Shown here: one piece after another, positions 2,132 through 63,993 of the stretch | How the letters are laid out: each line of letters starts with the position of its first letter | Numbering within the stretch: position 1 is the first letter of the stretch | NCBI GenBank assembly: GCA_964405835.1 | Contig: CAYOPN010000003.1 | Coordinates: forward strand, 29,273 to 93,272 | Origin: an uncultured Elusimicrobia bacterium | Lineage (GTDB): Bacteria > Elusimicrobiota > Elusimicrobia > F11 | Direction of reading: 5' to 3' | Length of the DNA stretch: 64,000 nt | Notes under the pieces: model-generated | Seen by the model: the letters and a program-made list of their open reading frames with translations, nothing else | Told to the model about the DNA's origin: nothing | Databases searched by the model: none | Position numbers and translations under genes: made by a program

Positions 2132-2197
2132 CGAAACCCTCACACTACGACCTGATTAATGAATAAGGACGTAGTGTGGGGGTTTCGTATTTTTACG
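2132..2197 (+). terminator. Rho-independent terminator for gene 827..2110 (18-bp stem with one G.U, 20-nt loop, then UAUUUUUAC)
   Basis: CGAAACCCTCACACTACG (2132-2149) pairs with CGTAGTGTGGGGGTTTCG (2170-2187); followed by tatttttacg. Confidence 0.6.
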
Positions 2198-2228
2198 TCA
2201 TCCTGGAATGTCTTAATCCAGGATCCAA
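2196..2228. repeat. REP-like hairpin element, singleton copy (stem CCTGGA/TCCAGG, loop ATGTCTTAA, 5' flank CGTCAT)
   Basis: cgtcatCCTGGAatgtcttaaTCCAGGatcc. Same loop with different but still complementary stems recurs at 27781-27852, 35466-35544 and 63962-63993. Confidence 0.6.
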
Positions 2229-2229
2229 T

Positions 2230-3198
2230 TTAATAGATGGGATTTGGCTGGATGAGGTGGAGGCGGACGTAGTCCGAGACGGAGCTTTCCAATGATTGAA
2301 TCGGTTTTGTGTAGCCGGCGGCTCGGAGCTTCGACAGATCTGCTTCCGTGAAATACTGGTATTGGCCGCGCAACTTCTCAGGCATCGGGAAATAGGTGAT
2401 TTTGGGTTCTTTCTTTAACGCCGCAAACACCGCCAACATGAGATCCTTAAACGAACGGGCCTTCCCAGAGCCGATATTGAAAATTCCGTTTTTCTCCGGG
2501 TTCTCCACGAAATAAAACATCGCGTCATCGACGTCTTTTACATAGACAAAATCACGTTCCTCGGACCCGTCGCCGTAACCGGGGCGCGACGACGCGAACA
2601 ACCGCACCGCGCCGTCCTTCTTAATTTGGTCAACCGCCTTGCACACCATGCTCCGCATGTCGCCCTTGTGGTATTCGTTGGGCCCAAATACATTGAAATA
2701 ACGGAAACCCACGACCTCGTCCGTGAGCTTGTTTTCGACGAGCCAGGAATCAAACGCATGTTTGGATTCGGCATAAGGATTAAGAGGTTTGAATTTCGGT
2801 AGTTCGCGGTCGTCGTCTTTGTAGCCGTTTTTTCCGTCGCCATAGACCGACGCGCTCGAGGCGTAGTGGAACCGTTTGCCGTTGGCCAGCGCCCATTTGG
2901 CGAGCGTCTGGCTGTATTCGAGATTGTTCCGTTTGAGAAAGGCCCGGTCCATTTCGGTGGTGTCCGAGCAAGCGCCCAAATGGACAATCAGGTCGGCGGA
3001 GAGTTTGTTCTTGGACAGCGCGTCCAGCGCGGCCTCGCGCGAAAGGTAGTCGCGGTACTTCTTCCCTCCAAAATTGGCGATGCCGTCCGGCGACGCCATG
3101 GTATCGACAAGCACAATGTCGTCCAACCCCATTTCATTGAGTTTCCGAAGGTAACAACTACCGATAAACCCGGCCGCGCCAGTCAAAAGGATCTTCAT
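2230..3198 (-). CDS. hldD: ADP-L-glycero-D-manno-heptose-6-epimerase
   Basis: MKILLTGAAGFIGS Rossmann motif; VGFRYFNVFGP, FKRDFVYVKDV and YFPMPEKLRGQYQYFTEADLSKLRAAGY align well with E. coli HldD/RfaD. Confidence 0.85.
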   Translation of the reverse strand: MKILLTGAAGFIGSCYLRKLNEMGLDDIVLVDTMASPDGIANFGGKKYRDYLSREAALDALSKNKLSADLIVHLGACSDTTEMDRAFLKRNNLEYSQTLAKWALANGKRFHYASSASVYGDGKNGYKDDDRELPKFKPLNPYAESKHAFDSWLVENKLTDEVVGFRYFNVFGPNEYHKGDMRSMVCKAVDQIKKDGAVRLFASSRPGYGDGSEERDFVYVKDVDDAMFYFVENPEKNGIFNIGSGKARSFKDLMLAVFAALKKEPKITYFPMPEKLRGQYQYFTEADLSKLRAAGYTKPIQSLESSVSDYVRLHLIQPNPIY

Positions 3199-11373: not shown

Positions 11374-11390
11374 TACACTCCGCGCCCGAG

Positions 11391-11455
11391 GTCGCTAAAC
11401 AGCTCAGCGACCGAGCCGGCTTGGTCGCCGCGCCGTTTGGCGACCGTGGCAAAAA
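11391..11455. repeat. Two adjacent 7-bp-stem/9-nt-loop hairpins (GGTCGCT-aaacagctc-AGCGACC and GGTCGCC-gcgccgttt-GGCGACC) within a ~45-bp sequence that is repeated at 11765-11810
   Basis: Hairpin A 11400-11422, hairpin B 11433-11455. ctccgcgcccgaggtcgctaaacagctcagcgaccgagccggc is repeated (1 indel, ~3 mismatches) as ttccgcgctcgaaggtcgctaaacagctcagcgaccaagccggc. Confidence 0.6.
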
Positions 11456-11506
11456 TCAGCAAGTCCCAATAATTCCTTCCAAAAACCACCCCTCCATGGA
11501 GTACCC

Positions 11507-11752
11507 ATGGAATATTACGTCTACATCCTTAAGAGCCTAAAGTCAGATCGCACATATGTCGGCATGACTTCGAATGTCGACCAACGTTTAGCGGAACATA
11601 ATCGCGGGAAATGCCCAACAACAAGCATTGGAATTCCGTGGAAGTTATTACGAGCTGAGAAGCATCCGAATAGCGATAGAGCTCGAAGAAGGGAAAAGTA
11701 TTTAAAAAGCGGAGATGGACGATTAACACTTAAATCGTGGGTCGGAAAATGA
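11507..11752 (+). CDS. GIY-YIG nuclease family protein (UPF0213-like), low-GC gene
   Basis: MEYYVYILKSLKSDRTYVGMTSNVDQRLAEHN matches the GIY-YIG motif (YVYIL...YVG...R..EH). GC visibly lower (~44%) than flanks; flanked by direct repeats. Confidence 0.75.
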   Translation: MEYYVYILKSLKSDRTYVGMTSNVDQRLAEHNRGKCPTTSIGIPWKLLRAEKHPNSDRARRREKYLKSGDGRLTLKSWVGK

Positions 11753-11764
11753 TTTTGATATATT

Positions 11765-11798
11765 CCGCGCTCGAAGGTCGCTAAACAGCTCAGCGACC
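11765..11798. repeat. Second copy of hairpin A (GGTCGCT-aaacagctc-AGCGACC) immediately 5' of tRNA-Leu
   Basis: 11776-11798 hairpin; direct repeat of 11391-11430. Confidence 0.6.
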
Positions 11799-11800
11799 AA

Positions 11801-11883
11801 GCCGGCGTGGCGGAATGGCAGACGCGTCAGACTCAAAATCTGATACTCGCAAGGGTGTGTAGGTTCAAGTCCTATCGCCGGTA
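11801..11883 (+). tRNA. tRNA-Leu (anticodon CAA), long variable arm, CCA not encoded
   Basis: Acceptor GCCGGCG/CGCCGGT; D-stem GCG/CGC; anticodon stem TCAGA/TCTGA with loop CTCAAAA (CAA); long variable arm TACTCGCAAGGGTGTG; T-arm GTAGG-TTCAAGT-CCTAT; discriminator A. Confidence 0.7.
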
Positions 11884-11949
11884 CTCTTAGCCCTCCTTAG
11901 TGCAATCCCGAAGTAAGCAAAAGCAGCGCCACTCTTTTGCTTAATTTGT

Positions 11950-24906: not shown

Positions 24907-26279
24907 ACGAGGCTCCTCTCGAGCGGCAATTCAACCTGAAACGTGGTGCCGTCCGTGCCGCTTTTCAGCAATTGCAGCGTGCCGCCGTGATATTCCACGT
25001 AACGTTTGGCCCGGCTTAAACTCAAACCCTGGCGGTGTTCCTTCGTCGAGAAAAAGGGTTGGAAGAGGCGCGGCGCCAAATGTTCCGGAACACCGCGGCC
25101 CGAATCGCGCACGAGCATTTGGATCACGCCCAAATCGCTGCGGTTCTTGATGGAAATCGTGATCTGACCGGATTCGTTCGGCAACGCCTCCAATGCGTTC
25201 CGGAGCAATTCGTGCACCACAAAACGAAGCAACGTGGGGTCGCCGGGAACGTCCGGCATTGGATCATCGGTGAGAAACTCCACGGCCAGCGTGGGCCGGC
25301 GTTCTCCAAAAATCTCAGCCATTTCGCGGTTGACCAAATCTTTAAGGGACACCGGCGCCGTCGACATCTGCCGGCGGCTGGTCAAGTGCAGGTAATCATC
25401 GAGCGCGCTGGTCACGTCCTGAAGCTGCGCCTGGATCGCGCGGAAATTTTCGCTCAACTCGCCCGCGCCTTCCACCAACAAACGGAGCCGCGCTTTCCAG
25501 AACGATTCGCTCTTGCTCTGCGGGTCGAGCAAACCCAATCGCTCCAGTGTCAACAGAAGCTGACCTTGGGCGGAAACCAGCGTCGTACGCACGCGCTGAG
25601 CGACGCCTTTCGCAAACATCTCCTCTTCGGTCCAAGAGAGTTCCTGTTTTTTGCGGATGGCCCTTTCCATTTCTTCGACAAGTTTTTTCTGCAACAGGCC
25701 GATCTCTTCCTGTTTTGCGGAAACGTACTGGTTGCTCGCGTCGGAGAACAATGTCCGCAAATTCCCAATGCGGCTTTCCAGATCTTTGAGCTGGTTTTTT
25801 AGCGTCTCATGATTTTCCGAGTAAAACCGGATGTCGTTGTCGCGCAACCGCAACTGCTGGGCGCGGAACACTTCCGACTGCTGCTCGAAATCGTGCAGCC
25901 GTTTGCGCAGTCCTTCGTTTTCCCCTTCCAGTTCGCTCGTGCGCCGCCGCAGTTCAACGGACTCTTCGGCCAAAACGGTCTTATCATCGGCAAGTCCCTT
26001 CACTTCTTGCGCCAGCTTGAGCGCCTTGGATTTCAGATCATCCTCTGAAACGCCAAGCAACGAACGCAGCAGTTCGTTTTCGTCGGTGGACACTTTTTCC
26101 TGGGACTTGATGGCGGTCGCCATGCCGTTCATGGCTTTCTCAAAATCATCGAGGTCGGAGAGATATTCACGGAAGACCATTTCTTTTTCGGTTTCGGTGA
26201 CAGTGGGCAGCGCCCAAAGACGTTTGGCCAGTTTCTCTTTAAACGCGCGCAGCTCTTTCTGCCAGTCGGGCAGCGTCAT
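24894..26279 (-). CDS. Coiled-coil-rich histidine-kinase-like ATPase (HATPase_c); H-box not canonical
   Basis: C-terminal N/G1/G2 boxes: VVHELLRNALEA, RDSGRGVP, GLSLSRAKRYVEYHGG. N-terminal ~300 aa heptad-rich. 13-nt overlap with the downstream gene. Confidence 0.55.
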   Translation of the reverse strand: MTLPDWQKELRAFKEKLAKRLWALPTVTETEKEMVFREYLSDLDDFEKAMNGMATAIKSQEKVSTDENELLRSLLGVSEDDLKSKALKLAQEVKGLADDKTVLAEESVELRRRTSELEGENEGLRKRLHDFEQQSEVFRAQQLRLRDNDIRFYSENHETLKNQLKDLESRIGNLRTLFSDASNQYVSAKQEEIGLLQKKLVEEMERAIRKKQELSWTEEEMFAKGVAQRVRTTLVSAQGQLLLTLERLGLLDPQSKSESFWKARLRLLVEGAGELSENFRAIQAQLQDVTSALDDYLHLTSRRQMSTAPVSLKDLVNREMAEIFGERRPTLAVEFLTDDPMPDVPGDPTLLRFVVHELLRNALEALPNESGQITISIKNRSDLGVIQMLVRDSGRGVPEHLAPRLFQPFFSTKEHRQGLSLSRAKRYVEYHGGTLQLLKSGTDGTTFQVELPLERSLVCPA

Positions 26280-27769
26280 GGCACGACCAGTGTCGAACCG
26301 GCCTTGGGCAACCCGCGCTCGATTTTGTCGGGGTTAGCGTTGTAGATTTTCTTCCACTGGTTCGGGTCGCCGTAATATTCCCGCGCAATCGACTGCAGCG
26401 TCTCACCGGCCTGCACTCTGTGCGTGCGCACGGTGTTTTGTTTACGGCGGATCTCGCTGAGTGTGCCGCGCTCTGCGGAAAGGTTGCCTTCCAGATCGCG
26501 GATGCGGGCCTTTAGGTCCCGGATCACGGCGTCGCGCTCCCCCAACAAATCTTTGTTTTTGAGCTGATCAATGCGGGACTTGGCGTTTTCCATCTCTTCG
26601 ACCGCCAGCCGTTTCTTCTGTTCAAGCTCGGCCAAGGACGCTTTCAGTTCCGCTTCGCGTGAGGTCATCAGCACCACATTCTGGTCGAGCTGGCTGGCCT
26701 GTTCCAACGCGCGGTCGTAATAAATTTCTGAGAACTGTGGCCGGCCGAACTTGTAGGTGAGCGACGCCCGGAACTGGCTCGCGTCGTCGTTGGCGGTCTT
26801 AAGCGGGATCAGATAGGCGATGTCGATCTGCATCGGCGAGATGTAAAGTCCGACGCCGGTGGCCAGGAAGTCGATACCGCCATCATCGCGCGAACCCCAA
26901 CCGAGCCGCGGACGCACCACCCCGCGTGCGAGCAGCCATTCCATCCCGGGATGAATGCGCCAGACACCGCCTGTTCCGAACTCCAAGTCGGCGATCATCA
27001 ACAAATAGTCCGCGTATTTAAATTGCACGCCACCGATGAGCGAGGGGCCGTCCGCGTTGGCGCCGGGATTAAAAATCTGCCGGAGCGCGAGCCCCGACTG
27101 GAGCCGGCGGTTCATGGGAAAAATGAAGCCTCCCGTAAAACCCAAACCAATATTGGACTCGCCAATGCGGGAAGATTTATCGTCGCCATTCTGGTGGCGG
27201 ATCGTGGCGGCCAGACCGACTTTGGCCGGAAATTTGAGGAAGCCTTTGGTCCAACGTTCCAATGGCGCATCGCCGGCGGTGCCCATCGTGATGTCGACCA
27301 TGTGCGCGCCCTCGGCCGGCGTCATGCCATACACGCCCAGCGCGACCGGGTAATTCTTATCGCGGAACCGGTACGGCCGCGCATACACGCCGTTGAAATC
27401 GGAACCGGCCGTTAACCCCACGCTATGAAACCGGCCGTAATCGACCGTCATTTCTTCTTGAGTGATGTCGTGAAGACCCGCCGGGTTGTAGAAAAGCGCG
27501 TAGGAATCGCCCGACACCGCCGAATAGCCGTTTCCCAGCGCCAGAGGGCGGGCGCCGCGGCCTTGCCGCGGGGAGGCATGGCTCATCGCCACCAGTGCCA
27601 CCACGAACACGAAAACAAAAACCAGCACGGGGAGCCAACGGATATAGAACGGGTCTTTACGCCAGATGGGGCGGGGAGGGCCTAACTTGAACAGGGCGGG
27701 CCGGTCACTAAGGTGCCGGTGCTTTTCAGGATTATTTTTGTGTGTTGGTTCCGAGCGCATAGAGTCCAA
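26276..27769 (-). CDS. Outer-membrane beta-barrel protein with coiled-coil segment and C-terminal LysM domain (paralogue of 827..2110)
   Basis: FYNPAGL motif shared with the 827 ORF; LysM RVQAGETLQSIAREYYGDPNQWKKIYNANPDKI...STLVVP. Confidence 0.6.
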   Translation of the reverse strand: MDSMRSEPTHKNNPEKHRHLSDRPALFKLGPPRPIWRKDPFYIRWLPVLVFVFVFVVALVAMSHASPRQGRGARPLALGNGYSAVSGDSYALFYNPAGLHDITQEEMTVDYGRFHSVGLTAGSDFNGVYARPYRFRDKNYPVALGVYGMTPAEGAHMVDITMGTAGDAPLERWTKGFLKFPAKVGLAATIRHQNGDDKSSRIGESNIGLGFTGGFIFPMNRRLQSGLALRQIFNPGANADGPSLIGGVQFKYADYLLMIADLEFGTGGVWRIHPGMEWLLARGVVRPRLGWGSRDDGGIDFLATGVGLYISPMQIDIAYLIPLKTANDDASQFRASLTYKFGRPQFSEIYYDRALEQASQLDQNVVLMTSREAELKASLAELEQKKRLAVEEMENAKSRIDQLKNKDLLGERDAVIRDLKARIRDLEGNLSAERGTLSEIRRKQNTVRTHRVQAGETLQSIAREYYGDPNQWKKIYNANPDKIERGLPKAGSTLVVP

Positions 27770-27780
27770 TTCGGCGAAGT

Positions 27781-27852
27781 CGTCATCCTGGAATGTCTCT
27801 ATCCAGGATCCACTTTAACATGGGCCCTGGATTAAGACATTCCAGGGCGACG
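27781..27852. repeat. REPIN-like inverted doublet of the ATGTCTTAA-loop hairpin element
   Basis: cgtcatCCTGGAatgtctctaTCCAGGatcc (27781-27811) and, inverted, ccCTGGAttaagacatTCCAGGgcgacg (27826-27852). Outer arms are mutually complementary. Confidence 0.6.
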
Positions 27853-27913
27853 AACTACGTCGATTTGGTTCTAAGCGTAAGGGGATTGAGGCGGAAAATC
27901 AACGCGTCTTTTA

Positions 27914-28063
27914 TTAATTGGCCGAGGAGGAAACGGGGGCGACACCCTTCTTAACTTTGCCTTCCGCGATCAATTTGGCGCGCTGGCGTTTGAGGCGGCG
28001 TTTCCAGCGTTGATCGTTCTTATGACGGGTGCGTTTTTGACCACTTTTTGTGCGATGACTCAT
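27914..28063 (-). CDS. Candidate small, highly basic protein (49 aa), not in ORF track
   Basis: ATG 28063 with GGAG 8-11 nt upstream: MSHRTKSGQKRTRHKNDQRWKRRLKRQRAKLIAEGKVKKGVAPVSSSAN. Lies between the REPIN and hemH. Confidence 0.3.
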   Translation of the reverse strand: MSHRTKSGQKRTRHKNDQRWKRRLKRQRAKLIAEGKVKKGVAPVSSSAN

Positions 28064-35465: not shown

Positions 35466-35544
35466 CGTCTCCCCGGCATGTCTTTGGCCGGGGTCTCCCG
35501 TTTTCAAAACTAGAGTTCCCGGCCAAAAGATTGCCGGGATGACG
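35466..35544. repeat. REPIN-like inverted doublet (loops ATGTCTTTG / AATCTTTTG) in the omp-znuA intergenic region and 5' UTR
   Basis: cgtctCCCCGGCatgtctttgGCCGGGGtctcc (35466-35498) and, inverted, ttCCCGGCcaaaagattGCCGGGatgacg (35516-35544; revcomp starts cgtcat). Confidence 0.6.
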
Positions 35545-36759
35545 CTAGCGGTCCTTAAACGCGTGCGCGTGTTTGCCGATCACCGCCGTCCATTGCAAAA
35601 AAACCTGATGGTCGGTTTCGGTGCCCGGCACGTTGTCTTTCACCTGCGAATACTGCGCGCGGATCCGCTGGAATTCCGACGGGATGAAATTGATGAACCC
35701 GCCAGCGCTGCGCGTCACTTCATCGGGATTATCGATGCTTTCGGAGTAATCGTAAAAACCGCCACCACTAAACAGACGGGCCAAGGCCGCTTCCACGTAG
35801 GAATAACCACCGAGCGCGCTGCGACGCTCGAACGTATCTGTGTCGCCGATGTTGTCCGCATCCGTGTCGAGCGCGAGTTCCTGGCGGCGGCGTTCGTTGT
35901 TATGAAACCCCTCCAGCCCCCAAGTAATTTTTTTGAACAGGTTTTGGCGAACGGGTTCGTAGCGATACGTGATATCCACACCAGTCAAATAGCGGCGGTT
36001 GTTCGACATGTCGTTCGCGATGCCGCCGATAAAGTTCTGCCGCGGCGTGTAGGCCTCGCTCACCCCCACATCAACGCCTTGGTTATCTCCCAGCGGAAGA
36101 TACGTGAACAGCCGCGCGTTGTAGGTCATTGCGTTCCATTTGCGGCCGGACGTGTCGCCATCGCCGCCGGTCTCTTCCAAACGCGTGTTCTCCGAACCGA
36201 TCTTGTTCGTTGCGCCGACGGTCCCTTGCAGGAAAAACGGGACGTAGAACAAGTGGGTCAATTCGACGCCATCCGATTTTGTTTCGCCGCCAACAAACGA
36301 ATCAAGCGAGGTCAAACGCTCCACGAACGGCAATTCGTGTTCGTGGAATTTCGGCAAGCGCCCAAAATTTGAGAAATAACGACCGAACCGCACGGTCATG
36401 TGGGCCGGCAACGCGGTCGTCACCACGGCCGCTTCCTCGACTTCAACCTCTTCGTCGGTGCCGTTGATGATTGCGTAGACCTTCGCGAACGGGTCCACGG
36501 TCGCCTGGAAATTTAGCTCCGCTCCGCGGAAATCAAAACCTCCTTTATCTTCTTTCGTGTCTTTGACCACGGCATCCAATACCAGGCCCATGGCCGGGTT
36601 AAACGCCGATGAATCCGCGGACGTGCGGCGCGCGTCCAACTCCTTTAATACCGCCTGTTTCACTTCTTCCACCGTGACTTCCGAATAAATGGGACGGATA
36701 AAACTCACTGCCAAAAATACGGCCGCCAATAGGCGGAACAAATGCATGTGTTGCAACAT
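35545..36759 (-). CDS. Putative outer-membrane beta-barrel protein (in znu/dps metal cluster)
   Basis: Signal MLQHMHLFRLLAAVFLAVSF; Gly/Tyr-rich alternating strands; C-terminus ...HAHAFKDR. Confidence 0.45.
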   Translation of the reverse strand: MLQHMHLFRLLAAVFLAVSFIRPIYSEVTVEEVKQAVLKELDARRTSADSSAFNPAMGLVLDAVVKDTKEDKGGFDFRGAELNFQATVDPFAKVYAIINGTDEEVEVEEAAVVTTALPAHMTVRFGRYFSNFGRLPKFHEHELPFVERLTSLDSFVGGETKSDGVELTHLFYVPFFLQGTVGATNKIGSENTRLEETGGDGDTSGRKWNAMTYNARLFTYLPLGDNQGVDVGVSEAYTPRQNFIGGIANDMSNNRRYLTGVDITYRYEPVRQNLFKKITWGLEGFHNNERRRQELALDTDADNIGDTDTFERRSALGGYSYVEAALARLFSGGGFYDYSESIDNPDEVTRSAGGFINFIPSEFQRIRAQYSQVKDNVPGTETDHQVFLQWTAVIGKHAHAFKDR

Positions 36760-58323: not shown

Positions 58324-59361
58324 TCAGAACTCCTCGCTGAATACCACGTCGCCCGTCACGCCCACCTGGTAGGCCGACACGCGCCGCTCAAAGAAGTTGG
58401 ACAGTTCCTGCACGTCCTGCAGTTCCATGAACGTAAATGGGTTCTTGGCTTCATAAATGGGATGAAGTCCGAGCGCGGAGAGCCGCCGGTCGGCCACGTA
58501 TTCAAGATATTGCCGCATGTCCTTGGCGGACATTCCGGCCACGCCCATCGACAACACGTCCTCGCCGAACGCCATCTCACAATCGACCGCTTCTTTCATC
58601 ATGGTGACGATCTGATCTTGAAGCTCAAAATCAAACAAACCCGGGTCTTCACGGCGCACCGTGTTGATCACTTCAAACGCAAAGTTGATGTGGCAGCTTT
58701 CATCGCGGAACACCCAGTTCGTTCCGGCCGCGAGCCCGTTCAACAAGCCTTTTGACCGCAAGAAATACACGTACGCAAACGCCGCAAAGAAGAACAGCCC
58801 TTCGATGCAACAGGCGAAGCAAATCAGGTTGAGAAGAAACTGTTTCTTATCGGCGGTCGTCCGGATTTCGGTGAGTTCTTGGATCGAAGCGATCCATTTG
58901 AAACAAAATTCGGCTTTTTTCTTGATGGCCGGGATGTTTTCGATGGCCTGAAAGGCCTTCTCGCGTTCGGCCGTGTCGGGAATGTAGGTGTCGAGCAATG
59001 TCAGGTAGAACTGCACGTGCAGCGCTTCCTCGTAAAGCTGGCGCGACAAATACATGCGCGCTTCCGGTGAATTGATGTGCGTATAGAGATTCAACACCAA
59101 GTTATTGGAGACAATCGAGTCGCCGGTCGCGAAGAACGCGACCAGACGGTGGATCAAATGCCGTTCCGCCTCGGTCAAACGCTGGGACAAGTCCGTTATG
59201 TCGGACGAAAAATCGACTTCGTCGACCGTCCAGGTGTTCTTGATGGCGGACTTGTACATCTCAAAGAAGACCGGGTACTTCATCGGCCTTAGATTGAGAT
59301 CAAAACCTCGGTCGAGAATCATTGGCAGGACTCGCAGCTCTCGGGATTTTCCAATGAGCAA
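58324..59361 (-). CDS. nrdB: Ribonucleoside-diphosphate reductase class I beta subunit
   Basis: Diiron/tyrosyl radical blocks (EEALHVQFY..., ...FFAAFAYVYFL..., ...RDESCHINFA...). Alternative start at 59322 makes an ATGA overlap with nrdA. Confidence 0.85.
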   Translation of the reverse strand: MLIGKSRELRVLPMILDRGFDLNLRPMKYPVFFEMYKSAIKNTWTVDEVDFSSDITDLSQRLTEAERHLIHRLVAFFATGDSIVSNNLVLNLYTHINSPEARMYLSRQLYEEALHVQFYLTLLDTYIPDTAEREKAFQAIENIPAIKKKAEFCFKWIASIQELTEIRTTADKKQFLLNLICFACCIEGLFFFAAFAYVYFLRSKGLLNGLAAGTNWVFRDESCHINFAFEVINTVRREDPGLFDFELQDQIVTMMKEAVDCEMAFGEDVLSMGVAGMSAKDMRQYLEYVADRRLSALGLHPIYEAKNPFTFMELQDVQELSNFFERRVSAYQVGVTGDVVFSEEF

Positions 59362-61718
59362 GCGATCTGCGCTTCCATGGTGGGTTTCGGCGCGACCGCC
59401 GCTTCAACGGTGGTGGTCGTCTTGTTGATCTTCGTCGCGGGACGCGAACGCAAATAATAGGTGGTTTTGAGTCCTTTCTTCCACGCATACATATACATCG
59501 ACGACATTTTGCCGATGGTCGGGCTCTCGATAAAAAGATTAAGCGACTGGCTTTGATCGATGTAAGCGCCGCGATCGGCCGCCATGTCAATCAACGAACG
59601 CATCGGCACTTCCCACACGGTGCGGTACACGGCGCGGATGTTTTCGGGGATCTCTTCGATTTCCTGGATCGATCCTTCGGCCATCTTGATGCGATTGCGC
59701 ACGCTTTCGTTCCAGAGCCCCAACTTCTTAAGTTCCAATACCAGATACTTGTTCACCTGCATGAATTCACCCGACATGGTCTCGCGCTTGAACACGTTCG
59801 ACACTTGCGGTTCGATCGATTCATAGGAACCGACAATGGAGGCGATGGTGGCCGTGGGCGCAATCGCGATCAGAAGCGAGTTGCGCATTCCGGTTTCGCG
59901 CATGCGCACGCGCAATTCCTGCCAGCGCGCCATGTTGTCTGGTGACACGTTCCACATCTCAAACTGAAAAACGCCCTGGGACGCGCGGGTCTGCTCGAAA
60001 GCGGCGTGCGGACCGTTCTGGGCCGCGATATCGCAGGAGGCCGACAGCGCATGGAAATAAATCTCTTCCTGGATCTTCTGGGAGAGGAGCCGGGCTTCGC
60101 GCGCGTCGAACGGCAGGCGCAATTTGAAAAACAGGTCCTGAAGCCCCATGATGCCGAGCCCCACCGGGCGCCAACGCTTATTGGATTCTGCGGCCTGGGT
60201 GGTCGGATAGAAATTCTCATCAATCACGTGGTCCAAGTATTTGACCGCGGTGCGCACATTTTTGCCGAGTTTCTCGAAATCGAACAGTCCATCGTCGCCC
60301 ACGTACATCGCCAAGTTGATCGAACCCAAGTTGCAGACGGCGGTCTCGCTGGAGGAGGTCACTTCCACGATTTCCGTGCAAAGGTTAGACGAGTGGACCA
60401 CGTTGCCGGGTTGCAGCGTCTGGTTGGACTTTTGATTGCAGGCGTCTTTAAAGTTCATCCAGCCGTTGCCGGTCTCGGCCAAGGTCTTCATCATGCGCGC
60501 ATAGAGATCACGCGCTTTCACCTGCCGGGAGTAGCTCTTCTTGAATTCTGCTTCCACGTAGGCCTTTTCAAAGGCCGCGCCGTAGAGATCGGTCAGCTGC
60601 GGCATTACTTTCGGGTCAAACAGCGACCACATACCGTCTTCCTCGACGCGTTTCATGAACAGGTCGGGGATCCAGTTGGCCAGGTTCAAATTGTAAGTGC
60701 GGCGCGCTTCTTCGCCGGTGTTGTCTTTAAGTTCGAGGAACTCTTCGATGTCGGCGTGCCAGATCTCCAGATACACGCAGCAGGCGCCTTTGCGCTTCCC
60801 GCCCTGGTTAACGGCCGCGACCGAGGAATCAAGCGTCTTGAGCCACGGCACGATGCCGTTGGAAAGGCCGTTCGTGCCTTGGATCAGCGAACCACGCGAG
60901 CGGATCCGGTGATAGGCAATCCCGATGCCGCCCGAGTACTTGGAAAGCTGGGCCACGCTCAAATAGCTCTTATAAATGGACTGGATGTCGTCTTTCGGAG
61001 AGTCCAACAGGTAGCAAGAAGACATTTGGGACCGGCGGGTGCCGGAATTGAACAACGTCGGCGTGCTCGGCATGTATTCAAACGATGAAATCAGATTGTA
61101 GAGCTCAATCGCTTCCCCAACATTCTTGGAAAGGCCGCAAGCGACCCGCATGAAGAAATATTGCGGTGATTCAATCACGTTCCGCGTGATCGGGTGCTTC
61201 AAAAGATAGCGGTCGTAGACCGTCCGGAGACCAAAATACTCAAACAGTTCGTCGCGCGAGGTGTCGATGCAGTCGTTGAGCTTGCGCATGTTCTCTTTGA
61301 CAAACAAATACGTCTTCTCAGCCACCAGGTTCTCTTCAAAACCCATGCCGATGGCTTGTGAAAAGGAATGAATGTCTTGGTTTTGGACTTCTTTTTCGAT
61401 GGTGGTGGCCAACAGGCGGGCGGCGAGCTTGGAATATTCCGGCTCTTCCATTATTAACTGGGCGGCGGTCTGGATGGAAAGGTTATCGAGCTCTTTGGTG
61501 GTGGCGCCGTCGTAGATGCCGCCAATGGTCTTGGTGGCGACCTTCATGGGGTCCACGTTGGAGAGCCCGGAGCAGTTGCGAAGCACGGCGCGGACGATTT
61601 TGTCCACATTAACGGCCTCAAACGTGCCGTTCCGTTTGCGGATGTGCATCGATTGTTCAGGGCGGATGGTGGTAGGCACCGATGGGATTAGGGTCCCGGA
61701 ACTCTCAGTCGATATCAT
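59319..61718 (-). CDS. nrdA: Ribonucleoside-diphosphate reductase class I alpha subunit with N-terminal ATP-cone
   Basis: ATP-cone HIRKRNGTFEAVNVDKI; catalytic blocks incl. C-terminal CxxC (CESCQ). Start at internal Met 61718 (GGAG upstream), not track start 61787. Confidence 0.9.
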   Translation of the reverse strand: MISTESSGTLIPSVPTTIRPEQSMHIRKRNGTFEAVNVDKIVRAVLRNCSGLSNVDPMKVATKTIGGIYDGATTKELDNLSIQTAAQLIMEEPEYSKLAARLLATTIEKEVQNQDIHSFSQAIGMGFEENLVAEKTYLFVKENMRKLNDCIDTSRDELFEYFGLRTVYDRYLLKHPITRNVIESPQYFFMRVACGLSKNVGEAIELYNLISSFEYMPSTPTLFNSGTRRSQMSSCYLLDSPKDDIQSIYKSYLSVAQLSKYSGGIGIAYHRIRSRGSLIQGTNGLSNGIVPWLKTLDSSVAAVNQGGKRKGACCVYLEIWHADIEEFLELKDNTGEEARRTYNLNLANWIPDLFMKRVEEDGMWSLFDPKVMPQLTDLYGAAFEKAYVEAEFKKSYSRQVKARDLYARMMKTLAETGNGWMNFKDACNQKSNQTLQPGNVVHSSNLCTEIVEVTSSSETAVCNLGSINLAMYVGDDGLFDFEKLGKNVRTAVKYLDHVIDENFYPTTQAAESNKRWRPVGLGIMGLQDLFFKLRLPFDAREARLLSQKIQEEIYFHALSASCDIAAQNGPHAAFEQTRASQGVFQFEMWNVSPDNMARWQELRVRMRETGMRNSLLIAIAPTATIASIVGSYESIEPQVSNVFKRETMSGEFMQVNKYLVLELKKLGLWNESVRNRIKMAEGSIQEIEEIPENIRAVYRTVWEVPMRSLIDMAADRGAYIDQSQSLNLFIESPTIGKMSSMYMYAWKKGLKTTYYLRSRPATKINKTTTTVEAAVAPKPTMEAQIACSLENPESCESCQ

Positions 61719-61764
61719 GGTGGGGTCTCCAAAAAAATTGATTTTTAAACGGACACGGATCACA

Positions 61765-61787
61765 CATCTTTGATTTTCATGTGTCAA
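61765..61787. promoter_or_regulatory. Palindrome ACACAT-N11-ATGTGT ~45-70 bp upstream of nrdA (candidate operator)
   Basis: gatcACACATctttgattttcATGTGTcaa in the nrdA/AOX divergent intergenic region; does not fit the 16-bp NrdR box spacing exactly. Confidence 0.3.
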
Positions 61788-61877: not shown

Positions 61878-62534
61878 ATGACGCAAACAACCGCAACATT
61901 GCTAAAAGAAGAACAAGCAAAAACGCTGGACACGCCGCGGCGGCGCTACGGGTTTCTCGCAAAATGCCTGTTCGTTGGAATGGACCTCGTCTACGGCCGA
62001 AAGAGGACCCTCTCGAAATTTAAAGTCCTCGAGATCATCGCGCGCGTACCGTACCAGTCGTGGGAGCACGTGGCCTACATTGCGATGACGCACACCTACA
62101 GCAAACCCGAATTCGCGCGCCGCATTTTTGAATTCGTGAAAGAATCGCGCGACCAACAGGACAACGAGCAGTGGCACCTGTTGATTTTGCAGGAACAGAT
62201 CAAGAAGTCTGGCCGCCCGGAAAGTTTTTATCTGCACAAAGCGCTGCCCCAAATCATTGCCTTCCTTTATTACCACGTGAGCTGGCTGCTCTACGTGATC
62301 AAACCCAGCCTCAGTTATTCGTTGAACGCCGACTTCGAGGACCACGCCGAACACGAATATATGGAGTTTGTGCGCGAAAACCCGACGTTTGAATTGGACG
62401 TGTTCGAAAGCGCGTTCGAACAGGACTACGGAAGTTTCGAAAGCATGGCCGATTTCCTGCGCCAGGTCGGACTGGACGAACGGAAACACAAAGAAGAAAG
62501 TTTGCATCGCATCGAGCGCGCGCGGTTCTCATGA
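61878..62534 (+). CDS. Alternative oxidase family (AOX/PTOX-like) diiron carboxylate protein
   Basis: LEIIARVPYQSWEH (LETVA-like), DNEQWHLL (NERMHL-like), EDHAEHEY (LEEEA-H-like), DERKHKEES (RADE-H-like). Start at ATG 61878 with AAGGAA RBS. Confidence 0.65.
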   Translation: MTQTTATLLKEEQAKTLDTPRRRYGFLAKCLFVGMDLVYGRKRTLSKFKVLEIIARVPYQSWEHVAYIAMTHTYSKPEFARRIFEFVKESRDQQDNEQWHLLILQEQIKKSGRPESFYLHKALPQIIAFLYYHVSWLLYVIKPSLSYSLNADFEDHAEHEYMEFVRENPTFELDVFESAFEQDYGSFESMADFLRQVGLDERKHKEESLHRIERARFS

Positions 62535-63952
62535 TCAAACGCGCGCTGATACTCATGACGATGGCTTCACTGGCCGGCGTCATTCCCCTCCACGCCAATA
62601 ATCTCTCGCTGGAAGAATATTTGGCCCGGGTTGGGAATCTTTCTGAAGACCTGCGCGCGATCGACAAAGACATTCAATCGCTGCGCGCTGAAATCGACGC
62701 GCGCGACTTGGAATTGACCGCCACGATCGACGTCGAAGTCAACCGCTTCTGGGACGACCGTCCCACTCTGTCCGCGAATCCGCAAGACGAAGGCCGCCGC
62801 GCCAACGTGGTGTTGGCCAAACCGCTCGCGACCGGCACGCGCTTGAGCTTGTTGGGCGGCGGCGACATCCAAAATTACCGCGCCGCGCCGAACATCGACC
62901 AAAACGAAATGAACTGGGAGTTGGGCGTGTCGCAATCGCTCTGGAACAACAGCTTCGGAAGGCAAACGTCGCTGCGGCGCCGGCGCGACCGCGACGAATT
63001 GCACACGCGTTTCCTGGACCTGACATTTCAACGCCAACAAATCATTATTGATTTTGAAACGCTGTTCTGGGACCTCTCTTACGCGCAACAGGAAGTAAAG
63101 ATCCGCAACGAGAACCTGGTGCGCAGTCGCCGCATTTCCTCCTATATTAAGGACCGCGTGTCACGCTCGGCCGCCGAACGGACCGACATGCTGCAAGCCC
63201 AGTCTTTGGTCTCGGGCCGCGAACTGCAACTGCAGGCCGCGGAAGATAATTTGAGGACGCTCCAAGCCCGGCTCCACGAACTCGTCAATTGGGAAGGCGA
63301 CCTGCTGCCATTGGAAGAAGATATCCGGCGCGACCGCGCGCTGCTCTCGTTGCCGGTGCAGGCCAATTTTGCGCCGCCGGCGCCGATGTTGATTGAAGCG
63401 CTCCGCGCCGAGTCCGACGCCGCCTATCTCGAAAGCCTCGCGAAATACGAAAAGGACCAACTCAAACCCGTGCTGGAGCTTGGGTACGTGTACGGCCAGC
63501 GCGGACTCGACACCTCGTTCTCGACCGCGCGCAGCGAAGCGGGCGATCACGACAACAATTTCCATCAGGTCGGCCTCTTGTTCACGGCGCCGCTCGACTT
63601 TTCCTTGATATCACAAGCGCGCCGCGCCACCGAGGCCCGCGCCGAAGCGCAGAGTTTCCGTTCCAACCGGTCCAATCGCCAGTCTCACGTGCAATGGGCG
63701 GACCTCGAACGGACCACGCTGGAACAAAAAGAGCGCGTGAAAACGGCTGTCGAGTTCGAAAAATTTCAGCAGAGCAAAAGCGCCGAAGAGCGCTCCCGTT
63801 ATCAAAAAGGACGGACGACCGCGTTTCAAGCCATTACGTTCGAGCTTGAGGCCGCTGAAAGCGAGTTGCTCGTTTATCAATTGCTGGCGCAGCTGCGCCG
63901 CACCGAAGCGCGGGCGCGCGCTTATATCCGCAGCTCGGAGGCCGTCCGATGA
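62531..63952 (+). CDS. TolC-like outer membrane efflux protein (OMF family)
   Basis: Signal MIKRALILMTMASLAGVIPLHA; two repeats of coiled-coil-rich OEP-like sequence. Confidence 0.75.
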   Translation: MIKRALILMTMASLAGVIPLHANNLSLEEYLARVGNLSEDLRAIDKDIQSLRAEIDARDLELTATIDVEVNRFWDDRPTLSANPQDEGRRANVVLAKPLATGTRLSLLGGGDIQNYRAAPNIDQNEMNWELGVSQSLWNNSFGRQTSLRRRRDRDELHTRFLDLTFQRQQIIIDFETLFWDLSYAQQEVKIRNENLVRSRRISSYIKDRVSRSAAERTDMLQAQSLVSGRELQLQAAEDNLRTLQARLHELVNWEGDLLPLEEDIRRDRALLSLPVQANFAPPAPMLIEALRAESDAAYLESLAKYEKDQLKPVLELGYVYGQRGLDTSFSTARSEAGDHDNNFHQVGLLFTAPLDFSLISQARRATEARAEAQSFRSNRSNRQSHVQWADLERTTLEQKERVKTAVEFEKFQQSKSAEERSRYQKGRTTAFQAITFELEAAESELLVYQLLAQLRRTEARARAYIRSSEAVR

Positions 63953-63961
63953 ACCTAATGC

Positions 63962-63993
63962 CGTCATTCCCGAATGTCTTAATCGGGAATCCA
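63962..63993. repeat. REP-like hairpin element, singleton with compensatory stem (TTCCCGA/TCGGGAA) and loop ATGTCTTAA
   Basis: cgtcatTCCCGAatgtcttaaTCGGGAAtcca. Confidence 0.6.

Follow-up and report, generated by a model that had tools for sequence, protein, structure and literature searches.

We found that the window, the whole 64,000-nucleotide stretch of uncultured Elusimicrobia DNA that was analysed, carries six copies of one hairpin unit at four intergenic sites, two as singletons and two pairs as inverted doublets, and that these units are non-coding DNA, inserted after the lineage had diverged from the closest relatives available. By analogy with described elements, they are probably copies of CGTC-tagged REPs, also termed Ssn-related motifs (SRM), forming a sub-family whose loop is T-rich and 9 nt long (master sequence ATGTCTTAA) and serving as ssDNA hairpins for an Ssn-type nuclease. 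The outcome is mainly one of classification, in which a seemingly new repeat would belong to the CGTC-REP/SRM superfamily; the partner nuclease of that superfamily has been known only since 2025. The novelty is modest: the repeat class is already described, and what is new is the 9-nt loop together with identical 31-mers across phyla. The assignment would add to the superfamily a form with a 9-nt loop, which mostly escapes the published search expression, and would widen its hosts to Elusimicrobiota, Nitrospirota, Ignavibacteriota and Omnitrophota, phyla that have been little studied.

The count of six rests on direct reading combined with an exhaustive search in which a perfect 6-bp stem had to enclose a 9-nt loop (Table 1). 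The units follow a common plan, consisting of CGTC, an 8-bp stem (usually AT plus six further pairs), a 9-nt loop (ATGTCTTAA or a near variant), the returning stem and CCA. The unpaired tag CGTC and the loop length of 9 nt are found in all six units, and the tail is CCA in four of six (A, B, B' and D) and CTC in C and C'. The stem ends are AT...AT in A, B and D; C' is one mismatch short of this, B' is closed by GC and C by TC/GT. The sequence-only reading had spoken of five hairpin units with stems of 6-7 bp; the hairpins are present at the places it gave, but its count does not hold, since six were listed and six are confirmed, and the stems are 8 bp long, with the AT/AT dinucleotides beside the 6-7-bp core pairing as well. 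Reading the loop as a mini-ORF (ATG TCT TAA) is unsupported, as three of the six window loops do not contain it.

Table 1. Hairpin units and the REPIN-like doublet B/B' in the 64-kb window, with positions, strand, composition from tag to tail and score under the family covariance model.
Feature	Position	Strand	Composition	Covariance model (bits)
Unit A, singleton	2196-2227	+	CGTC ATCCTGGA ATGTCTTAA TCCAGGAT CCA	54
Unit B, left arm of doublet B/B'	27781-27812	+	loop ATGTCTCTA, tail CCA	51.4
Unit B', right arm of doublet B/B'	27821-27852	-	CGTC GCCCTGGA ATGTCTTAA TCCAGGGC CCA	50.9
Doublet B/B'	27781-27852	.	REPIN-like, tags outward, tails 8 nt apart	
Unit C, left arm of doublet C/C'	35466-35497	+	CGTC TCCCCGGC ATGTCTTTG GCCGGGGT CTC, stem with 1 mismatch	42.3
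Unit C', right arm of doublet C/C'	35513-35544	-	CGTC ATCCCGGC AATCTTTTG GCCGGGAA CTC	36.4
Unit D, singleton	63962-63993	+	CGTC ATTCCCGA ATGTCTTAA TCGGGAAT CCA	52.8

When examining the gene context, we observe that the units are intergenic and mostly directly 3' of stop codons, with three of the four loci at most 10 nt from a stop codon. Unit A lies 3 nt beyond the stop of a heptose epimerase gene (2230-3198, -) and 86 nt past a PorV/LysM OMP gene (827-2110, +), and doublet B/B' is flanked by the stop of the gene for a 49-aa basic protein (27914-28063, -) and the start of a LysM OMP gene (26276-27769, -). The tag of unit C' is 1 nt from the stop codon (35545-35547) of a 404-aa minus-strand gene, with znuA downstream, and unit D is found 10 nt 3' of the stop of a TolC-like (OEP) gene at 62531-63952. 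The gene contexts originally given for the copies are correct.

We compared the units with chance expectation. The loop word ATGTCTTWR occurs seven times in the window, against 1.06 occurrences expected, and CGTC followed by an 8-bp stem (at most one mismatch) around a 9-nt loop occurs six times, whereas 200 first-order Markov simulations averaged 0.42. Run over the window, the family covariance model scored the six units at 36-54 bits, the next match at 20 bits and the rest below 13 bits. A chance origin of the six units is excluded. When folded as ssDNA, the singletons reach about -6.5 to -6.9 kcal/mol (unit A, -6.5), and the doublets fold as single long hairpins of -24 to -29 kcal/mol with z-scores of -6.4 to -8 (B/B', -24 kcal/mol and z -8; C/C', -27 to -29 kcal/mol), in agreement with the proposal that they are REPIN-like inverted doublets forming a larger palindrome. 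The claim of stem covariation is likewise borne out, as across 27 distinct units 88% of the stem cells are paired, versus 69% in shuffles and 20-47% with the partner strand slid, and changes on both sides are observed in seven of the eight stem pairs.

We also note a weak and degenerate candidate for a seventh copy at 60635-60674 (+), composed of CGTC TTCCTCGAC, a 15-nt loop and GTCGGGGA TCCA, which may be due to chance; it scores 20.2 bits under the covariance model (rough E ~1e-4) and lies inside an 822-aa ORF at 59319-61787 (-). CGTC REPs inside genes are known.

Next, we investigated whether the sites are occupied in syntenic relatives. For sites B/B' and C/C' the relatives were L180 and L181 (Elusimicrobia bacterium GCA_022072025.1), in which gene order is kept and HemH is 66-72% identical, and for site A they were L183 (epimerase 89% identical) and L182 (81%). 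HemH of the window has a 100% identical counterpart among database proteins, and the comparison with the HemH relatives also assigns the window to Elusimicrobiota. At site B/B', the 72-nt doublet is absent from L180 and L181, and the non-coding block CGATTTGATTCYAAGC.TAAGGGGTTTGAGGCGGAAATTCAAT and the gene for the basic protein (49-50 aa) are kept. At site C/C', the upstream gene and znuA are separated in L180 by only 19 nt from stop to start, without a unit; in the window the same interval holds about 65 nt of other spacer and a 79-nt doublet that abuts the stop codon. At site A, the spacers of L183 and L182 measure 67 nt and 16 nt, both without a unit; that of L183 contains a GC-rich hairpin, and in the window a separate long hairpin is found beside the unit. 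In total, all three testable orthologous sites are filled in the window and empty in the nearest syntenic Elusimicrobiota (66-89% protein identity), and because of this we regard the units as insertions and not as conserved terminators. The comparison of occupancy with relatives had been called for by the sequence-only reading, and the refutation it had in mind, by which the sites would be ordinary conserved terminators of specific genes, fails. No target-site duplication is evident. Such clean pairs of filled and empty sites are evidence that the units insert, which had been a missing piece on the mobility of Ssn-linked repeats.

Beside doublet B/B', a non-coding block of about 50 nt, CGATTTGGTTCTAAGCGTAAGGGGATTGAGGCGGAAAATCAACG (27853-27913, minus-strand sense), is kept near letter-for-letter in L180 and L181, although their proteins share only 66-72% identity with those of the window. 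The block is situated between the doublet and the 27914-28063 gene; the gene for the conserved, highly basic 49-aa protein (MSHRTKSGQKRTRHKNDQRWKRRLKRQRAKLIAEGKVKKGVAPVSSSAN) precedes it, and the LysM OMP gene follows downstream. Rfam gave no match to the block, which may have a regulatory role or encode a small RNA.

The empty sites also bear on an RNA-level explanation, in which the neighbouring outer-membrane and transport genes would use the hairpins in their transcripts as terminators, processing sites or stabilisers of the 3' end. The stability of the hairpins and their closeness to stop codons at three of the four loci would suit such a role, and Di Nocera et al. (PMC3733652) make the case for transcription of many REPs and a possible tuning of expression by them. 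We nevertheless consider it improbable, since relatives lack the units in the orthologous spacers and have terminator-like hairpins of their own there, no U-tract follows the units, one doublet is located upstream of a gene start, and the unpaired tag and tail are strand-specific and kept whatever the direction of the neighbouring gene. An Rfam search of the window returned only tRNA-Leu at the gathering threshold, and a relaxed search added only sub-threshold, meaningless matches of the doublets to miRNA precursors. The structured RNA that had been offered as an alternative thus finds neither support in Rfam nor conservation at orthologous sites.

Upon comparison with known systems, the closest likeness is to the CGTC-tagged REPs. 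Prokaryotic REPs have been sorted into GTAG- and CGTC-tagged superfamilies (Di Nocera, De Gregorio and Rocco 2013, PMC3733652), of which the CGTC superfamily comprises families CGTC-1 to CGTC-4, including Neisseria dRS3 and Rickettsia RPE-4/RPE-6, and GTAG is the tag of the RAYT-associated REPs. According to that survey, a CGTC element consists of an unpaired tag CGTC (or TGTC/CCTC), an 8-9-bp stem with A-T in positions 1 and 2 "almost invariably", a loop of 4-5 nt and the tail CCA, and the families are multi-copy, mostly intergenic and mostly arranged as inverted dimers (PMC3733652). The window units share the unpaired CGTC, an 8-bp stem opening with A-T and T-A, and the tail CCA, and they also share the inverted dimers, often with different closing pairs, the intergenic location just downstream of genes and, as far as the 64-kb window and the public loci show, the lack of a linked transposase. 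They differ in the loop, which is of the 9-nt ATGTCTTAA type as opposed to 4-5 nt. Other loop lengths are given in the survey as exceptions in Bradyrhizobium, Kosmotoga and Mesotoga (PMC3733652), indicating that the 4-5-nt loop defines the families and not the superfamily. The hosts differ as well, here including Elusimicrobiota, Nitrospirota, Ignavibacteriota and Omnitrophota, none of which is named as a host in the available text of PMC3733652; a search of that text for Elusimicrobia and Nitrospira gave nothing.

The Neisseria element has since been redefined as NTS (CGTCATTCCCGCGMAVGCGGGAATCYRG) and generalised to "Ssn-related motifs" (Chenal et al. 2025, PMC11893778). Its nuclease SsnA is a stand-alone GIY-YIG protein of 94 aa (cd10448) that binds the hairpin in ssDNA alone and cuts a few nt upstream of it; cleavage is governed by the three nt that precede the palindrome, binding depends most on the C that directly follows it, the loop is dispensable, the stem is recognised by sequence as well as by shape, and the ssnA genes (stand-alone cd10448 GIY-YIG) are often flanked by the motif (PMC11893778). 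The flanks of the window units agree with the NTS consensus CGTCAT...ATCYRG (ATCC[A/G]). In two alignments, one of them of 18 sequences that include unselected partner units, the invariant columns are G2, T3, C4 and C30, the last being right after the palindrome. These invariant columns, the GTC and the post-palindrome C shared with NTS/SRM, coincide with the positions that govern cleavage and binding by SsnA in mutagenesis (PMC11893778). A further likeness is found in related genomes, in which canonical units with 4-nt loops (GAAA, GCAG, GAAG), some of them letter-identical to the Neisseria NTS, adjoin long-loop units. The SRM search expression, HGTCWYN(0-2)YYVSBRHN(0-5)WNVSBRGN(0-2)RNCYNB (PMC11893778), is matched by two of the six units, C and C', with 0.6 expected by shuffling. 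The remaining four (A, B, B' and D) fail it on loop length and stem composition, and the window units differ from NTS also in that their stems are not ATTCCCGC and that no linkage between ssnA and the units was seen.

The architecture of a hairpin with an unpaired 5' tetranucleotide, with inverted doublets as long palindromes, is equally that of classical REPs and REPINs mobilised by a RAYT (IS200/IS605-type Y1 transposase), which the sequence-only reading had proposed as partner. As in the GTAG REPs of Pseudomonas and Enterobacteria, the doublets fold into one long hairpin, singletons occur alongside and insertion polymorphism is observed. A RAYT is however very improbable as the mobilising enzyme and the proposal was abandoned, since the tag is CGTC in all six units and not GTAG, and the CGTC survey explicitly found no link to RAYT or IS200 genes and no transposase gene flanked by CGTC units (PMC3733652). 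In addition, a heuristic motif screen of the 64-kb window for HUH/Y1 (HUH plus Tyr) gave no candidate, and no such ORF is recurrent near the 99 public copies.

We examined the distribution of the same hairpins in public genomes by scanning one genome per species, 185,579 species in all, with the pattern CGTCAT-N6-7-ATGTCTTAA-N6-7-ATCC, in which the stems were left free. The scan returned 99 matches at 96 loci, of which 76 matches have perfectly complementary stems, several more have one mismatch, and about a dozen are plain chance. The genome-wide search that had been called for therefore yields many further copies, and these, together with the covariation, sustain the claim of a REP-like, structure-selected, multi-copy hairpin family. 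Perfect stems occur in at least seven phyla, and the hosts include Nitrospirota, Elusimicrobiota (including Ca. Obscuribacterium), Ignavibacteriota, Omnitrophota, Bacteroidota (Chitinophagaceae) and a gammaproteobacterium, with further hosts in "Deltaproteobacteria", Thermodesulfobacteriota and Syntrophobacteraceae. When counting all CGTC-type units over the 96 public loci, we find 205, as compared to 3 in shuffled sequence. MAGs rich in units include CAWDTD01, JAKAEG01, JAJAPZ01, CAVSHI01, CAYXDS01 and JBGAON01. The stem CCTGGA, shared by units A and B, occurs among the public matches in Elusimicrobia MAGs alone. In L184, a close relative of the window organism, the end of the contig is CGTCATTCCCGCGAAAGCGGGAATCC.

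The constancy of the loop in the 99-match set comes from the selection on that loop. Unselected units at the same loci, partner units among them, have variable long loops (for example ATGTTTTAA, AATCTTTAA, GGACCTTAA and GTGCCTCTA), an 11-nt loop, AGAGTTTCTGA, or canonical tetraloops, and the variable loops of partner units are of the type RKGYYTTWR, so that the loop conservation is weaker than had been claimed.

In one deltaproteobacterial genome, we observe a MITE-like element of 186 bp that has terminal inverted repeats (CTAGTACTTACTTGCGTAA...TTGCAATCAAGTACTAG) and, at its centre, a CGTC doublet composed of one unit with a 9-nt loop and one with an 11-nt loop. The element has at least 20 copies of 98-100% identity, located at L001, L003, L012, L019, L035 and others (contigs CAWDTD01, deltaproteobacterium MAG MFD03726.bin.2.121), and it is also found at the Syntrophobacteraceae loci L041, L050, L054 and L079. 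Separately, in unit-rich genomes (L010, L071, L090 and others) mechanically listed ORFs read through runs of CGTC hairpins, and the resulting spurious peptides have recurrent strings, among them "WIPAFAGMT" and "VIPECLNRGS"; these ORFs are likely an annotation artefact.

The public copies raise the alternative that the units are a distinct replicator, which would be separate, active, horizontally spreading and non-autonomous, with an enzyme (a loop-specific Ssn variant or another protein) that reads loop and tag, and with the SRM resemblance reflecting shared ancestry only. Several observations point in this direction. The 31-mer of unit D is identical at 10 loci (L007, L009, L037 and L049 among them) from at least three phyla, the MAGs being of Nitrospirota, Elusimicrobiota and "Deltaproteobacteria", and nine different perfectly complementary stems accompany the loop ATGTCTTAA. 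Whole doublets are conserved among Elusimicrobia genomes at non-syntenic places, where the matches to B/B' are 76-86% identical over the whole doublet, a doublet is carried by the highly identical 186-bp element, and all three testable sites in the window are recent insertions. Against this reading, the cross-genome set was selected on the loop, so that its constancy is by construction, and the loops of unselected partner units vary. Furthermore, no recurrent neighbouring gene was found at the 96 loci, and no vehicle for spread was identified, as there were no copies in plasmid or phage collections and IMG/VR gave one chance match without a stem. Overall, we regard a distinct long-loop replicator as unlikely, though it deserves more weight than either a RAYT or an RNA-level role. 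If true, it would explain both the identical 31-mers across phyla and the recent arrival of units in the Elusimicrobiota genome studied here, and it would conflict with strictly vertical inheritance of REP/REPIN populations, as REPINs are described as vertically inherited and lineage-specific, in contrast to the identical long-loop 31-mers.

Under the preferred assignment to CGTC-tagged REP/SRM copies, a mechanism can be proposed from the biochemistry of SsnA (PMC11893778). The functional form would be the hairpin extruded in ssDNA, during replication, repair or DNA uptake, and a small stand-alone Ssn-family GIY-YIG nuclease, encoded elsewhere in the genome, would bind the stem and the C that follows it and nick the tag-bearing strand a few nt 5' of CGTC. 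The outcome may be a domesticated control on the recombination of incoming ssDNA, a means of repeat spread, or both, and if the units influence mRNA 3' ends at all, this would be a secondary consequence. As SsnA can do without the loop, a long one would be tolerated; because SsnA reads the stem sequence too, the variable stems in the window would each need a matching enzyme specificity. A nuclease that ignores the loop would not account for the recurrence of exactly ATGTCTTAA in at least seven phyla, which leaves some room for a loop-reading partner and for horizontal spread. A loop-reading Ssn variant, if true, would represent a new specificity in a family that is being developed as programmable ssDNA cutters.

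We searched for a partner protein both around the public copies and in the window. In about 700 kb around the 99 public copies there was no GIY-YIG ORF, and no Ssn-type gene flanked by units was found. All-against-all clustering of 1,533 ORFs from the 96 public loci gave no family tied to the units, the clusters consisting only of common domains, spurious repeat read-through ORFs and one multi-copy protein of 131 aa. This 131-aa protein is located near CGTC units in four loci, L012, L035 and L073 (one deltaproteobacterial MAG) and L092, and appears to resemble the "GxxExxY" PD-(D/E)XK-type family. Its recurrence is probably due to the protein itself being multi-copy in that genome, and no link between it and the repeats was established. 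That no partner nuclease was recognised for the window units is not evidence of absence, as one gene per genome is expected and 64 kb were seen.

The window contains one stand-alone GIY-YIG ORF, at 11507-11752 (+), which encodes 81 aa (PF01541, E 4.6e-14) and has the UPF0213 protein BH0048 as its nearest solved relative. As a candidate for the partner nuclease it is unsupported, being 9 kb from the nearest unit and not flanked by units, and belonging to a clade that is tRNA-linked and poor in units, with 5 CGTC units in 365 kb among the best 80 of 452 relatives from a metagenome scan.

The surroundings of this GIY-YIG gene form an observation of their own (11387-11884 in the window). A tRNA-Leu(CAA) gene (11801-11884, +) begins 48 nt downstream of the ORF, and a 34-bp direct repeat (11387-11420 and 11772-11806), which contains both the initial 6 nt of the tRNA and a hairpin (GGTCGCT-AAACAGCTC-AGCGACC), brackets the gene. 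Among the best 80 of the 452 relatives, a same-strand tRNA starts -5 to +85 nt after the gene in 54 of the 69 loci with enough downstream sequence, and the identity of the tRNA varies, including Leu, Arg, Gln, Ala, Asn, Ser, Met and Phe. In the same set, an exact partial copy of the downstream tRNA, 11-81 nt in length, is found upstream of the gene in 42 of 55 loci, versus 0 of 55 when shuffled. The copy usually corresponds to the 5' end of the tRNA (acceptor stem and D arm) and its distance from the gene is 13-250 nt, in most cases 60-130 nt. We found no published description of a tRNA-embedded GIY-YIG cassette. The arrangement looks like a mobile, homing-type mini-cassette that sits in tRNA genes at the D-loop and duplicates the 5' part of the tRNA, and as such it is more unusual than the hairpin units.
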